Positions 35,027 to 39,895 of a stretch of 39,895 nucleotides of DNA are shown here, piece by piece; position 1 is the stretch's first letter; each line of letters begins with the position of its first letter. The DNA comes from an uncultured Hellea sp. GTDB taxonomy: Bacteria; Pseudomonadota; Alphaproteobacteria; Caulobacterales; Maricaulaceae. The translations under genes and the position numbers were made by a program. The stretch is taken from NCBI GenBank assembly GCA_964418815.1, contig CAYQNQ010000003.1, positions 5,528-45,422 of the forward strand. Direction: 5' to 3'. The notes under the pieces are model-generated. The model saw nothing but the letters and a program-made list of their open reading frames with translations. It did no database searches and had not been told where the DNA came from.

Positions 35027-35956
35027 ATGAATAATCGCGGCCAATCCACCCAAATCATTTTAGCCATGTTTGGCATATTGGCTTTGACCGGCTATATTAT
35101 GTGGGGGGTAAATGGTGTCATCGGCGCTGTGCTTTTGTCTCTGTTTTTGATTTATTCGGTCAGCCGCGCATCGCCTAAAATGCTCCTGAAGATGTATAAA
35201 GCCAAAGCGCTTGGGCCCCGGGATTTACCTGAATTACAAGACCTGTTTGACCGGCTCGTTGAACGCGCCGAACTGGAACACCCGCCAACCCTTTATTACG
35301 TGCCCTCTAAAATGCTCAACGCCTTTGCGACAGGCCGCGAAGAACAGGCCGTTGTGGCCGTCACCCATGGTCTTTTGCAGCATATGAACAACCGGGAAAT
35401 CGCCGGTGTTTTGGCCCACGAGCTATCCCACATCAAGCACAAAGATGTCTGGGTCATGGGCCTGGCCGATGTGTTTTCGCGGCTGACCAATACAATGGGT
35501 CAAATCGGGCAGTTAATGCTCCTTTTGTCTTTGGGCGCGCTTCTTCTCGACATTAAACCGCCTATCCCCATGTTATGTGTCGTTGTGCTTCTATTGGCGC
35601 CGCTCGGATCGACGCTCTTGCAGCTGGCCCTGTCGCGCACCCGCGAATATGAAGCGGATTTGGGCGCCGTGCGCATTACAGGCGATCCGGCCGGTCTGGC
35701 TTCCGCGCTCCAGAAGGTCGAAAAGGCCAAAAAGAGCTGGCTACAGGCTGTCATGCCGGGCCGGAAAATTCCGGAGCCGGCCATGCTGCGGACCCATCCT
35801 CCCACGCAGGAGCGGGTTGAGCGCCTCATGGCGCTGGAAGGCGGCCTTGATGTACCCGTGCCCGTATCTATCCCTGAGCTCATGGTCAATCCGCCGCGCG
35901 GGTATGAGGTCCGACGACGGCCACGCTGGCACGTCATATCCGGTCTTTGGTACTAA
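35027..35956 (+). CDS. M48 family zinc metalloprotease (HtpX-like)
   Basis: 309 aa. It has N-terminal TM helices, the HExxH motif HELSHIKHKD, further TM helices, then a downstream REYEAD third-ligand region. Confidence 0.85.
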   Translation: MNNRGQSTQIILAMFGILALTGYIMWGVNGVIGAVLLSLFLIYSVSRASPKMLLKMYKAKALGPRDLPELQDLFDRLVERAELEHPPTLYYVPSKMLNAFATGREEQAVVAVTHGLLQHMNNREIAGVLAHELSHIKHKDVWVMGLADVFSRLTNTMGQIGQLMLLLSLGALLLDIKPPIPMLCVVVLLLAPLGSTLLQLALSRTREYEADLGAVRITGDPAGLASALQKVEKAKKSWLQAVMPGRKIPEPAMLRTHPPTQERVERLMALEGGLDVPVPVSIPELMVNPPRGYEVRRRPRWHVISGLWY

Positions 35957-36359
35957 AAAAGATCCCGACCCTTGGGACAAGGGCCAGGAAGGGAATTACC
36001 TTGGTGGAGGTAATAAATGATGCGGGGAGGGACGACCCGCACACAAGGGATGACACATTAATGGCGGAACCCGCCGGAAAAATCACTTAAAGCTTACGCC
36101 ACATTTTTGTGACTCTGGGTGACAGAAACGTGAGACGACGTGAACACATTCTGTGCGGAGCTATGGTTAATATATGAGTCGGGTCCCGGCGCCCGCATTG
36201 CGCCCAGTTATCGGGCTATTGATCATTGGATTGGGCTAAACGTGGTAGTCCAGCCTGTTTCATATAGATCTCATACCGGGGCCCACCACGCCTATGTAAA
36301 TTCCTCTTGATAATTTTTTATGTATCGCCAAATTGCCATCTTCTGAGTTGGGGGACTTA

Positions 36360-38939
36360 ATGGCCGATAATAATCAAAATGACGAATATGAATCCGTCGA
36401 TTTTTACAGGACGCACAGCCAATCCGTAGATAACGGGTTTTCAAGATTTTCAGTCGGCGGAAAATATTATTTTTGTTATTATGCTGACGGCGACGTATTT
36501 CTAATCAGCCAGGCCTATACGGCAGAGAAGGGCCGGGATAACGGCATAGAGTCGGTCCGGAAAAATGCGCAAATCCAAAAACGCTTTCGAATTGGTGAGC
36601 GCAGGGATGGCCGAATGGGCGTCAGTCTTGTTGCGGGAAATCATCAGGAAATCGCTGTCTCCGGCCCAATTGCGTCCCAGGCCCGTGCGCAGTCGCTGAT
36701 TTCAAAGATGAGCGGATCGTCCAGACTTGAAACAACCGGAGCGGCCAAAGTGCCAAAAAAAGCGAAGGTAAAGCCAGCACCTGCAAGAAAATCCAGAGAG
36801 CAGGATTACCGTCCCTTGGCGTTTTATCAAAACAATGTCGACAGTTCGGTTGATGGATTCACGACGTTTGTGGGTGAAGACGACCTGCATTATTTTACAT
36901 ATAATGTAGACAGCCGAATCGAGCTTATATCCGAAGGATATGGCAGCGAAGATGCCATGCTAAACGGCGTCGACTCTGTTATTCGAAATATGCCGGATGT
37001 TGACCGATATGTTTTCAAGAAATTTAAGAGCGGCAAACGCGATTACAGGATAAAAGCGCGTAACGGTAAGGAAATTGCCCGGTCTGTCTGGTATGATTCG
37101 CTGGAAGGCGCCGAGCAGGGCGCCGGATCGGTTCGTTCTTTTTTTGACGGCCGCGCGCCTTCCGGTGCCACGCGGACGCGCCGGTCCTGGTATGCTGGGA
37201 GCCGGGGATATGTTCAGAAGCCCATGGATACTTATTATGTCCAGAAAGAAAAACCCCGGAAACGACCAGCCAAAACAGATGAGCTGGAAACCCAAAAGCG
37301 GCGTAACAAAGCCTCTAATCTGGAAGCGGCTAAATCCAAAACGTCTCCTGTAGAAAAGCGAAAATCAGCGCCCTCTCTATCCAAGAAAGCCAAGTCAAAA
37401 CCACGATTGAGCGGAGCTGGCCGCGCCAGTGCTTTAGCCGCCTCAATTTCCGGAGCGAAGCCTGCCAAAGCTGCCAAACCCAAAGCAACAAAGCCTAAAG
37501 CAACAAAATCTAAGTCGGCAAAACCAAAGACAAGCAGTGCCGCGAAAACGGTCAAGCCCAAAACGTCGCCTGCGAAAATTATCAAGGTGAAAGCCAAAGC
37601 CGTTGCGGCGCCGGTTGAAAAACCGAAAGTCAAAAAGGTCAAAGCGAAAGCGAAACCAAAAGCGGCGGTTAAAACAACGTCTAAAAAACCTGCCGCAAAA
37701 AAACCGGCGCCGAAGCCGGTTGCGGTTAAGAAGCCGGTCACCGCCAAGAAAGCGCGGATAGCGCCGAAGGCGGCAGCGCCCACGAAATCCAAGGTCAAGC
37801 AGACGAAAGTTAAAGTGAAAAGGGTCAAAGCGAAAACCGTTCGTACGGTTGCTGCCAAGCCCAAAGTCAAGCGGGTTAAAGTTAAACCGGCCGCAATTGC
37901 GGCGGCCGCTGCCGGTACGGCTATAGCAGCCAAGGCTGCTGCGGATATAGCTCCGGCCAAACCGGTTGAGCCCAGGATTGAAAAACCTGTTATTCCCAAG
38001 GCCGCCGCGCCAACGCCAACTCCAACGCCCAGACCAGTTCCGCCTCCGCCCCCTCCGCCCACACCTGCGCCGGTTATGTCAGAGGCTGCTCCCGTAGCTG
38101 CGCCAATTGCTGCCCCTGTTGCGGCTAAGGCCGCTGCCATCGGCACAGGGACCGCCGCAGCTGTCGCGACGGGACAGGCCGGCGGCGGCTTTAGATGGAT
38201 CTGGCTGCTATTGCCTCTATTATTAATACTGGCATTATTCGGATTAAAGCAATGTATCCCTGCGAAAACGGCGGTCACGCCGGTGCTTGCCGAATCTGAG
38301 GCCAGCACAGCCGTGGAAGCCGTGAAAGACATTACGGAACCGGCCTTGGAAGCGCCGCCCGCAGTGGAACCGCCGCCCGCGCCAGAGCCGACGCCTGAAC
38401 CCGCACCCGCACCCGAGCCCATGCCGGAGCCGGTCGAACCCGTGGTCGAGACCGTCCCAGAACCAGTTGTCATAGCTGAAAAACCCATGCCTAAACCAAT
38501 AGAGGCCATCAGCTATTGTGGACCGTCCAATGTTTCGATTTTCAACGTTGCAGATAATTCGGCGCCCAAAAACGTCACAAGGCTCGGAACTTATCCGGAG
38601 TTTGGTGACAGCCATGGTCTTACGCCGGCGCAATTTTATGACAAATTGAATCTGCGCTATCAGACCAATGACTTTGACCGAAAATATCTGGACTATTTAT
38701 TCCGGTCGATGGGATATAGTCAGGGGTTTGCAGACGCCAAAGCCGCATATTTTTCTGATGATACACTTGTTCGGGGCTCCAAGGGATTACTCGGATATGG
38801 ACCTTTCCACGGACTGGAGTATTCACAGCTCAATGTGGCATCAGACCGGGATTTACGGGCTTTCCGCATTCAGGCTGCCAATGGCTCCAGTGTCTATTTC
38901 ATGAAAACCTGCGGCAATTATATGTATGTTTGTCAGTAA
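36360..38939 (+). CDS. Chimeric single-pass membrane protein: 4 YegP/DUF1508-like repeats + Lys/Ala/Pro-rich tract + TM + Pro/Glu-rich spacer + orphan C-terminal domain
   Basis: 859 aa from the ATG at 36360 (SD GGGGGA; the ORF track begins at a TTG at 36333). The YegP-like units are ...LISQAYTAEKGRDNGIESVRKNA, ...EIAVSGPIASQARAQSLISKM, ...LISEGYGSEDAMLNGVDSVIRNM and ...GKEIARSVWYDSLEGAEQGAGSVRSFF. KP/KA-rich repeats follow. The TM helix is FRWIWLLLPLLLILALFGL, followed by a PEPxPEP spacer. Confidence 0.75.
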   Translation: MADNNQNDEYESVDFYRTHSQSVDNGFSRFSVGGKYYFCYYADGDVFLISQAYTAEKGRDNGIESVRKNAQIQKRFRIGERRDGRMGVSLVAGNHQEIAVSGPIASQARAQSLISKMSGSSRLETTGAAKVPKKAKVKPAPARKSREQDYRPLAFYQNNVDSSVDGFTTFVGEDDLHYFTYNVDSRIELISEGYGSEDAMLNGVDSVIRNMPDVDRYVFKKFKSGKRDYRIKARNGKEIARSVWYDSLEGAEQGAGSVRSFFDGRAPSGATRTRRSWYAGSRGYVQKPMDTYYVQKEKPRKRPAKTDELETQKRRNKASNLEAAKSKTSPVEKRKSAPSLSKKAKSKPRLSGAGRASALAASISGAKPAKAAKPKATKPKATKSKSAKPKTSSAAKTVKPKTSPAKIIKVKAKAVAAPVEKPKVKKVKAKAKPKAAVKTTSKKPAAKKPAPKPVAVKKPVTAKKARIAPKAAAPTKSKVKQTKVKVKRVKAKTVRTVAAKPKVKRVKVKPAAIAAAAAGTAIAAKAAADIAPAKPVEPRIEKPVIPKAAAPTPTPTPRPVPPPPPPPTPAPVMSEAAPVAAPIAAPVAAKAAAIGTGTAAAVATGQAGGGFRWIWLLLPLLLILALFGLKQCIPAKTAVTPVLAESEASTAVEAVKDITEPALEAPPAVEPPPAPEPTPEPAPAPEPMPEPVEPVVETVPEPVVIAEKPMPKPIEAISYCGPSNVSIFNVADNSAPKNVTRLGTYPEFGDSHGLTPAQFYDKLNLRYQTNDFDRKYLDYLFRSMGYSQGFADAKAAYFSDDTLVRGSKGLLGYGPFHGLEYSQLNVASDRDLRAFRIQAANGSSVYFMKTCGNYMYVCQ

Positions 38940-38962
38940 GCCGTCTAAAAGCAGATAGCTGT

Positions 38963-39895
38963 TTAACCGTCCGCTTCCATAGCGGCCAGTCGGGCCGCCT
39001 GGTCTTCGGCGATCAGGGCGTCAATCACGTCGGAGAGTTCATCGCCGGCCACGATTTTATCGAGCTTGTATAGCGTTAGATTAATGCGGTGGTCCGTCAC
39101 CCGGCCTTGAGGGTAATTATAAGTGCGAATGCGTTCTGAGCGATCGCCGGAGCCGACCTGTCCTTTGCGCTCGTCGGCGCGCTCCGCGTCAAGGCGCTGC
39201 TTTTCCATATCGTAGAGGCGCATTTTAAGTAGGCGCTCGGCATTGGCCCGGTTCATGTGCTGGGATTTGGCATCGCAGACGACAACTACGCCTGTCGGGA
39301 TATGGGTCATGCGCACGGCCGAGTCGGTTTTGTTGACGTGCTGTCCGCCCGCGCCAGACGCCCGCATCGTGTCGACCCGGACATCGCCCATGGAAAATCC
39401 GATATCTATATCTTCAGGTTCGGGCAGGACGGCGACCGTGGCGGCGGAGGTATGAATGCGGCCCTGGGTTTCAGTCACGGGGACGCGCTGGACCCGGTGA
39501 ACACCGGATTCAAACTTCATCATGCCATAAACACCGGCGCCGGAGATGGAGGCGACAATCTCTTTAAAGCCGCCCATTTCGGCCTCGGATTCAGACTCGA
39601 TCTCGACCTTCCATTTATTGAGCTGCGCATAGCGGGCATACATGCGGTACAAATCGCCGGCAAAAATCGCGGCTTCGTCGCCGCCGGTCCCCGCGCGGAT
39701 TTCAAGCACGATAGAGGCATTGTCATCTTTGTCTTTGGGGAGCAGGAGGACTGAGACTTCATGTTCCAGTTCCGGGAGCTTTTCTTTAAGAGCCTGTAGT
39801 TCTTCTTTGGCCATAGGGCCCATTTCCGGGTCATCGAGCATAACGGTCAGATCTTCCATCTCGGCCCGGACGGATTGCAGCTTGCGCACGCCTTC
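38963..39895 (-). CDS. prfA: Peptide chain release factor 1 (5' end lies beyond the window edge)
   Basis: It has the GGQ motif ([23 protein letters not shown]), an RF1-type PxT tripeptide region ([20 protein letters not shown]), and [14 protein letters not shown]. The frame stays open to position 39895. Confidence 0.9.

Follow-up and report, generated by a model that had tools for sequence, protein, structure and literature searches.

A new C-terminal domain family takes the place of OmpA_C in predicted membrane-anchored YegP-domain proteins of Hellea-like marine bacteria

Caulobacter PodJ, Vibrio HubP and Pseudomonas FimV are bitopic, wall-anchored polar scaffolds, in which a single membrane passage connects a periplasmic peptidoglycan-binding domain with a cytoplasmic region which is large, in part disordered, and organizes cytoplasmic cargo; HubP acts in this way on the chromosome origin via ParA. 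These are the nearest described designs for the protein considered here, which is encoded in a stretch of 39,895 nucleotides (the window) from an uncultured Hellea sp. of the Caulobacterales. Its gene, at positions 36360..38939 of the + strand, codes for 859 amino acids (aa), and an initial annotation, made from the sequence alone, described the product as a chimera of four YegP repeats, a histone H1-like basic tract, an Ala/Pro-rich run, one transmembrane (TM) helix, a TonB-like spacer and an orphan C-terminal domain, which could tether the nucleoid to the envelope. The open reading frame (ORF) and all six of these segments are indeed present. Their domains are unrelated to those of PodJ and HubP/FimV, and the polarity of HubP/FimV is the opposite one: their LysM is N-terminal and periplasmic, and their cytoplasmic part is acidic. 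The general theme of a wall-anchored bitopic scaffold is known, whereas the C-terminal domain (CTD) and the protein family built on it are undescribed.

Other known systems resemble single parts of the architecture. The tandem DUF1508 pair in each N-terminal unit is shared with E. coli YegP and Shewanella SO_3888 (UPF0339), as is also seen in the superposition on the structures 2k49 and 2k8e, yet E. coli YegP is soluble and about 110 aa long, whereas the window protein has 859 aa, an internal TM helix and two extended pairs. In terms of its sequence it is a YegP-domain protein and no ortholog of YegP, and as YegP has no assigned function, the homology gives no mechanism. A membrane-embedded part, a Pro-rich periplasmic linker and a globular C-terminal periplasmic domain are features of OmpA/MotB-type proteins, yet the CTD exhibits neither sequence nor fold similarity to OmpA_C (PF00691). 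TonB likewise combines an inner-membrane anchor with a Pro/Glu-rich, probably rigid spacer and a globular C-terminal domain, but its cytoplasmic N-terminus is very short, while the helix of the window protein follows 610 cytoplasmic residues. The likeness to TonB drawn in the initial annotation holds for the composition of the spacer (P 26%, E 17%) and goes no further, as no match to TonB_C was found in the window protein and no ExbB/ExbD-like genes were found among the neighbours in the window or in the orthologous locus L001 (Hellea MAG-118). The long disordered Lys/Ala/Pro polycation recalls AlgP, PhaF and H1 tails (net charge +58 in 170 aa, compared to +55 in AlgP), and its repeat number varies among strains, as it does in AlgP. 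The KPAA domain of AlgP binds DNA and localizes to polyphosphate granules (PMC9239181), and the AlgP-homologous tail of PhaF binds RNA (PMC12818456). AlgP and PhaF are soluble, however, whereas the window tract is internal, tethered to a TM helix and devoid of a regular KPAA array, and no homology is claimed.

The CTD (aa 717-859, 38508..38936, + strand) has an ordinary composition and three cysteines (Cys720, Cys851 and Cys858), and carries the motifs L-G-T-x-P-E-F-G-D-S-H and F-M-K-T-C-G-N-Y-M-Y-x-C-x-COOH. A confident AlphaFold2 (AF2) model (pLDDT 89.4, pTM 0.84) predicts an alpha+beta fold of two long helices and a six-stranded sheet. Neither the window protein nor 29 CTDs matched a Pfam or NCBIfam family in this part, and the PDB yielded no sequence match and no significant fold match. 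The domain is thus an orphan in the sense of having no known sequence or fold relatives, but it does not stand alone: a search with the last 151 residues recovered 28 metagenomic proteins at 45-65% identity and 228 places in GTDB species genomes, and a profile search recovered 242 clusters (at 50% identity) among 1.84 billion representatives. The best 80 of the 228 genome places belong almost entirely to Hellea, Litorimonas, Algimonas, Robiginitomaculum and unclassified Caulobacterales/Maricaulaceae, with five loci in Saprospiraceae and one in Thiotrichales, such that the family extends over Caulobacterales and Bacteroidota. Several paralogs occur per genome (L004, L032 and L049 in H. balneolensis), and the named type strain Hellea balneolensis DSM 19091 has the homolog WP_051279904.1, whose linker is less strongly basic (a net charge of at most +17 per 100 aa). 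The CTD always forms the extreme end of the protein, with a single residue after the last Cys. Its conserved positions include Cys12, Cys143, Cys150, His44 and His109, with a high degree of conservation at the three cysteines, and all conserved positions are retained in the window sequence; His109, Cys143, His44, Asp123 and Lys141 are near-invariant, and Cys12 and Cys143 are the most consistently co-retained, in nearly all members which cover both positions. In public records the relatives appear only as "DUF1508 domain-containing protein" or "YegP family protein", and a full-text literature search on DUF1508/YegP/UPF0339 revealed no study on membrane-anchored forms or on the CTD. On the basis of these searches, the CTD is an unannotated domain family without known relatives.

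The proteins which end in this domain were compared by their architectures, tallied on the best 149 of the 242 clusters. YegP repeats precede the CTD in 82 of the 149 representatives, with one to seven or more YegP stretches per protein, and in nearly all of them a W-L-L-P-L-L-L-L-type helix with a nearby Cys lies between the two. Such YegP-helix-CTD loci are found in Caulobacterales (L001, L003, L008, L010, L014, L048 and L062) as well as in Saprospiraceae (L038, L066, L073, L079 and L080). The commonest CTD proteins of the Caulobacterales, of about 480-500 aa, consist of a signal peptide, an 8-strand outer-membrane (OM) barrel (PF13505), a Pro-rich or Cys-repeat linker and the CTD; in the OmpA layout the part after the barrel is periplasmic. 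In Bacteroidota the CTD follows either a barrel and TSP_3 (thrombospondin-3) repeats or PD40 and CarboxypepD_reg, two architectures which usually end in OmpA_C. The opposite replacement was found with a profile of the YegP unit, which recovered six proteins combining DUF1508 with OmpA_C (P0220, P0222, P0223, P0224, P0226 and P0227). The four whose sequences were read (P0220, P0222, P0224 and P0227) carry an extended YegP unit and a W-L-L-P-type helix before OmpA_C, and the gene of P0224 adjoins one for an AMIN-Amidase_3-LysM amidase and a BON-LysM gene. Two further proteins, P0132 and P0164, bear both domains, and in P0132 the CTD follows OmpA_C. Judged by domain order, the CTD can stand in for OmpA_C at the periplasmic end and vice versa, both after OM barrels and after YegP plus helix, and these architectures demonstrate their positional equivalence at the sequence level. 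The core of the family, as predicted from the same comparison, comprises extended YegP units, the helix, a spacer and a putative periplasmic anchor.

Some members depart from these layouts. In P0139 (963 aa), which also has a TolA-like Lys/Ala/Glu tract, four HhH_5 (helix-hairpin-helix) modules stand in place of YegP, on the same helix and CTD, and P0053 (886 aa) carries a CHAT protease and PKD on the helix-plus-CTD chassis. P0029 (560 aa) apparently has three copies of the CTD.

The single TM helix of the window protein, as proposed in the initial annotation, is FRWIWLLLPLLLILALFGL (aa 611-629, 38190..38246, + strand), followed by K-Q-C632. It is the only segment with a Kyte-Doolittle value above 1.6 and is 88% identical to its counterpart in L001. 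It conforms to the motif W-L-L-P-L-L-L-L...[KR]-x-C, which is common to the YegP-type members, including the sisters ending in OmpA_C. The helix is followed by the Pro/Glu-rich spacer (aa 630-716, 38247..38507, + strand), which is predicted to be periplasmic, has a net charge of -11 and exhibits an in-frame length variant of 6 nt at 38399; the median spacer of the family measures 75 aa. No N-terminal signal peptide was found in the window protein. The net charge is +74 before the helix and -11 after it, and four cysteines (Cys632, Cys720, Cys851 and Cys858) all lie C-terminal of the helix. OmpA_C needs a periplasmic location to reach peptidoglycan, and in the sister proteins it stands behind a YegP unit and helix of the same kind, so that all proteins of the group should be oriented with YegP inside and the C-terminus outside. 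The position of the CTD after OM barrels, whose C-termini face the periplasm, points the same way. Together these features strongly favour an N-in/C-out topology for the window protein, with the YegP repeats and the polycation in the cytoplasm and the last domain in the periplasm, as first deduced from the positive-inside rule. Most YegP-type members, including those ending in OmpA_C, have a Cys shortly after the helix, with Lys/Arg or Gly before it ([KR]-x-C, G-C; 38241-38258, aa 628-633, in the window). An internal lipobox at this Cys was considered and rejected, as Lys/Arg usually occupies position -2/-3 and the window protein has K-Q-C.

The N-terminal part matches Pfam PF07411 (DUF1508) in three stretches, with a score of 84.4 bits against a cut-off of 22 (88.9 bits in the ortholog L001), and both E. 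coli YegP and Shewanella SO_3888 can be aligned to aa 40-121. For aa 1-266, AF2 gives a model (pLDDT 84.8) in which four beta-beta-beta-alpha repeats make up two pairs, in agreement with the initial description, and Foldseek superposes it on 2k49 and 2k8e (E-values 3e-7 and 8e-7, target TM-score 0.75, root-mean-square deviation 1.3-1.5 A). Each pair, here and throughout the family, is preceded by a conserved extension, D-[DE]-Y-x-x-x-x-F-Y-(7-9)-G-F-x-x-F, which is without counterpart in E. coli YegP, contributes a short helix and one added strand to the model, and is also common to the sister proteins ending in OmpA_C. The first extended unit (aa 7-120, 36378..36719, + strand; extension at 36378-36449, aa 7-30) is thus composed of the extension and two DUF1508 repeats forming a predicted cytoplasmic pseudo-dimer, supported by PF07411, by sequence matches to 2k49/2k8e and by AF2 and Foldseek. 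The second unit (aa 147-266, 36798..37157, + strand; extension at 36798-36869, aa 147-170) is built in the same manner, as indicated by PF07411, a weak match to 6q2z and AF2. A single YegP unit (121 aa) used as query against an index of 5.8 billion proteins gave no match at E<=1e-5. In a metagenomic protein of 302 aa, P0252, a YegP pair is combined with S1 RNA-binding domains (PF00575), a single case which hints that DUF1508 may associate with nucleic-acid binders.

Between the YegP units and the helix lies a linker of 344 residues (aa 267-610) with a net charge of +74 and almost no acidic residues. It comprises a polycationic tract, predicted to be disordered (aa 267-510, 37158..37889, + strand), whose core (aa 341-510) contains K 31%, A 22% and P 11% at a net charge of +58, and a neutral Ala/Pro-rich segment (aa 511-610, 37890..38189, + strand; A 35%, P 22%) with PPPPPPP and the stretch PAAIAAAAAGTAIAA, conserved in the ortholog alignment. 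Both segments hence have the composition initially ascribed to them, and TRF found in the tract only repeats of 6-15 nt in 2-4 copies and no regular KPAA-type tandem array. The tract is kept in the orthologs L001, L003, P0039, P0087 and P0116 (L001 and L003 being loci that correspond to these P entries), and linkers of 350-380 aa with a net charge of +74 to +89 occur only in this clade, with intermediate values in P0055, P0069 and P0047; the median cytoplasmic linker of the family has 66 aa and a net charge of +1. From this distribution, the H1/AlgP-like tract is a lineage-specific elaboration in Hellea-like marine Caulobacterales and neither a family trait nor a defining feature.

The likeliest function, with slightly less than even confidence, is that of a bitopic inner-membrane protein which provides a wall-fixed docking site and holds a cytoplasmic polyanion at the membrane. 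The protein would be inserted N-in and C-out, such that residues 1-610 are cytoplasmic, and the rigid Pro/Glu spacer of about 85 aa would carry a disulfide-stabilized CTD to a fixed periplasmic structure. To judge by co-retention, Cys720 and Cys851 would be bonded to each other, and Cys858 may pair with Cys632. The CTD may thereby anchor the protein to the envelope, with peptidoglycan as the likeliest target in view of the two-way exchange with OmpA_C; binding of the CTD to the cell wall is moderately suggested by this exchange. On the cytoplasmic side, the H1/AlgP-like polycation could bind a polyanion electrostatically, chromosomal DNA, RNA and polyphosphate being equally open, and the YegP units would supply the conserved activity of the family, possibly the binding of single-stranded nucleic acid. 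By analogy with AlgP and PhaF, tethering of a polyanion by the tract is suggested weakly to moderately. Nucleic acid as the ligand is a slight leaning, towards which the HhH_5 modules of P0139, the rarA/mgsA genes found upstream of some family loci and a published comparison of tandem DUF1508 with the sPC4/Whirly binders of single-stranded DNA and RNA (PMC12065111) may each point, none of them strongly. A more specific version, in which the CTD is a new anchoring fold that in Hellea-like bacteria ties an H1-like polycation and YegP to the wall, and hence the sacculus to the nucleoid, RNA or polyphosphate granules, is rather doubtful. Each genome also codes for OM barrels that end in the CTD; in an extreme form of this version, CTDs associating with one another could even form a chain from the outer membrane to the chromosome.

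Several observations weigh against this proposed docking function. With the short and almost uncharged linker typical of the family, tethering of a polyanion cannot be the family's core function. A PC4/Whirly-like fold of the YegP pair was not recovered by Foldseek, which gave only an insignificant match to the PC4-like PURA (E-value 0.08), so that nucleic-acid binding by YegP is without independent support from the fold search. The comparison of gene neighbourhoods at 13 loci revealed no universally conserved partner across the family, and none of the RNA-seq runs searched for the gene contain it. The coexistence of OmpA_C and the CTD in P0132 and P0164 suggests that the ligand of the CTD may differ from peptidoglycan, and the invariant-like His109 and Cys143 may leave room for an enzymatic role.

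Other explanations were also considered. The YegP arrays may do a conserved job as part of a membrane-proximal stress protein, held at the inner membrane by the wall anchor, while the K/A/P tract would serve as a flexible spacer or bind anionic phospholipids. This is unlikely, though not markedly so: YegP arrays, helix and anchor are the conserved core while the basic tract is clade-specific, the gene of the YegP-OmpA_C sister P0224 adjoins the BON-LysM gene, which is of an osmotic-stress type, and the differences between strain variants are confined to the low-complexity parts, as expected for a length-tolerant spacer. E. coli YegP is a stress-induced protein; DUF1508 proteins have also been described as stress-induced (bioRxiv 10.1101/2024.11.21.623966) and are found downstream of the DNA-damage-responsive regulators CapK/CapS (PMC13373217). 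A neutral spacer, however, would not need a net charge of +74 over 344 residues under purifying selection (nonsynonymous differences, pN, 0.29 against synonymous differences, pS, 0.74), kept in orthologs at 50-64% identity, and the replacement of YegP by HhH_5 in P0139 points to nucleic acid. Alternatively, the CTD may sense or modify a periplasmic or wall component through its His and Cys residues, as a trans-envelope signalling protein or an enzyme, the cytoplasmic part being the output. The five near-invariant residues of the CTD, the top Foldseek matches, which are papain-like Cys proteases at insignificant scores, and a possible function beyond wall binding in the proteins with both domains would fit such a role. 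The co-retention of Cys12 and Cys143 in an oxidizing compartment fits a disulfide rather than a nucleophile, and the cytoplasmic part has no recognizable output domain, which makes this explanation improbable.

The constant position of the CTD at the extreme C-terminus, exactly one residue past the last Cys, and its presence in several paralogs per genome on unrelated passengers would also be expected of a sorting or secretion signal, perhaps cleaved, like the CTDs of the type IX secretion system (T9SS). This is very unlikely, however, since the domain follows OM barrels with periplasm-facing C-termini and, in proteins without signal peptide such as the window protein, an inner-membrane helix; it is modelled as a 143-aa alpha+beta globule and is interchangeable with OmpA_C, and no match to Por_Secre_tail was found in the window protein or in 29 CTDs. 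The CTD is moreover found in both Caulobacterales and Bacteroidota, which to our knowledge share no dedicated sorting system. An assembly or frameshift fusion of separate genes was also considered, given that the central third of the gene is repetitive and of low complexity, where assemblers may err, and its likelihood is negligible. Logan contigs, assembled independently from run X1 of an algae metagenome, cover 35903-39100 evenly at 13-15x; a single one of them spans 36636-38029, and overlapping pieces continue to 39100. Their only differences in length from the window, an insertion of 15 nt after 37496 and a deletion of 6 nt at 38399, are multiples of three, as is every indel seen, and lie at short tandem repeats. 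A second public assembly codes for an 862-aa protein, 97% identical, in which the YegP units and the CTD are identical to those of the window protein, and every substitution and both indels are confined to low-complexity parts. The frame is also kept in the ortholog L001 (914 aa, 64% identical), which lies in the same order of genes (alanine/sodium symporter, aminotransferase, M48 peptidase, YegP-TM-CTD gene and convergent prfA), and the domain order is kept in at least 82 clusters of two phyla. A fusion is therefore already refuted by the contigs, the second assembly, the orthologs and the in-frame indels. In the comparison with L001, pN is 0.07-0.40 and pS 0.72-0.86 (saturated) in every region, including the basic tract, which indicates that purifying selection acts on the whole gene. 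The in-frame tandem repeats at 37476-37513 (15-nt unit) and 38399-38415 (6-nt unit) vary in copy number among strains, so that length differences arise in the basic tract and the Pro/Glu spacer but not in the folded domains, which are identical.

The solid part of these results is the new anchor-domain family, together with the placement of YegP at the membrane, while the nucleoid tether is an attractive idea based on analogy. With the CTD family, the known envelope-anchoring modules (OmpA_C, LysM, SPOR and PG_binding) would gain a further member, one which replaces OmpA_C in two phyla. A first contextual handle would also be provided on YegP/DUF1508, a widespread domain with solved structures, which these proteins systematically place on the cytoplasmic side of the inner membrane, linked to a predicted wall anchor. 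Should the tract prove to bind DNA or polyphosphate, a rare direct covalent link of the envelope to the nucleoid or to granules would result, with a bearing on the positioning of chromosomes and granules in stalked marine bacteria.

In the window, the gene is an uninterrupted + strand ORF which begins at TTG 36333 or ATG 36360 and has its stop codon at 38937-38939. The ATG, which gives 859 aa plus stop, coincides with the public gene call, is consistent with the N-termini of orthologs, and is preceded by a Shine-Dalgarno-like GGGGGA read directly from the sequence (36350..36355, + strand; the GGGGG run 36350-36354 lies 5 nt before the ATG). With a gap of 400 bp upstream and the convergent prfA downstream, 36360..38939 would form a transcription unit of its own. 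Rfam and sigma-70 scans of the 400-bp upstream region gave no match. Directly after the stop of the M48 (HtpX-like) peptidase gene, a 12-bp GC-rich hairpin (35962-35989) is preceded by an A-run and followed by a T-run on the opposite strand. This build resembles that of a bidirectional terminator, set between the M48 gene and the leader of 400 bp that precedes the YegP gene. A minus-strand ORF at 37235..38509 (424 aa, Gly/Ala/Thr-rich), antisense to the basic and Ala/Pro tracts, was dismissed as a low-complexity shadow and no gene.

The neighbours of the gene in the window are housekeeping genes (aminotransferase, M48 peptidase and prfA). Some anti-phage defence proteins, such as Menshen NsnA, bear DUF1508 sensor heads; membership in such systems is not supported by the housekeeping neighbours or by a PADLOC scan, which gave no defence-system match for the window protein. 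The sole match in a search of a phage library was a YegP family. Across the loci compared, neighbours are shared at the level of clades only: four loci of Caulobacterales have rarA, and three of Saprospiraceae have ABC/FtsX-type genes. The product of rarA/mgsA is an AAA+ replication-associated recombination protein, and its gene immediately precedes the YegP-TM-CTD gene, in the same orientation and 47-122 bp away, in L008 (2885-4234), L010 (2431-3735), L048 (2363-3670) and L062 (2439-3740); this placement is absent in the window and in L001.

Two further features were observed among the proteins ending in the CTD. The linkers that connect the OM barrel, or the helix, with the domain often contain one to five copies of a repeat of about 20 aa, x-C-W-D-G-S-x-V-x-x-x-x-x-C-P, none of which occurs in the window protein. 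This two-cysteine repeat, which shows a weak, sub-threshold match to the Pfam "CC domain", is found in L007 (739-2232), L040 (4885-6465) and L049 (4882-6429), and also in P0003, P0027 and P0053. In addition, each Hellea or Litorimonas genome codes for one giant protein of 1700-2100 aa which ends in the CTD (L032, 640-6432; L047, L053, L018 and L050), and in which DUF11 and CarboxypepD_reg-like domains are followed by a long beta-rich part reaching to a barrel-like ...L-Q-M-R-L-K-F motif, a linker and the CTD.

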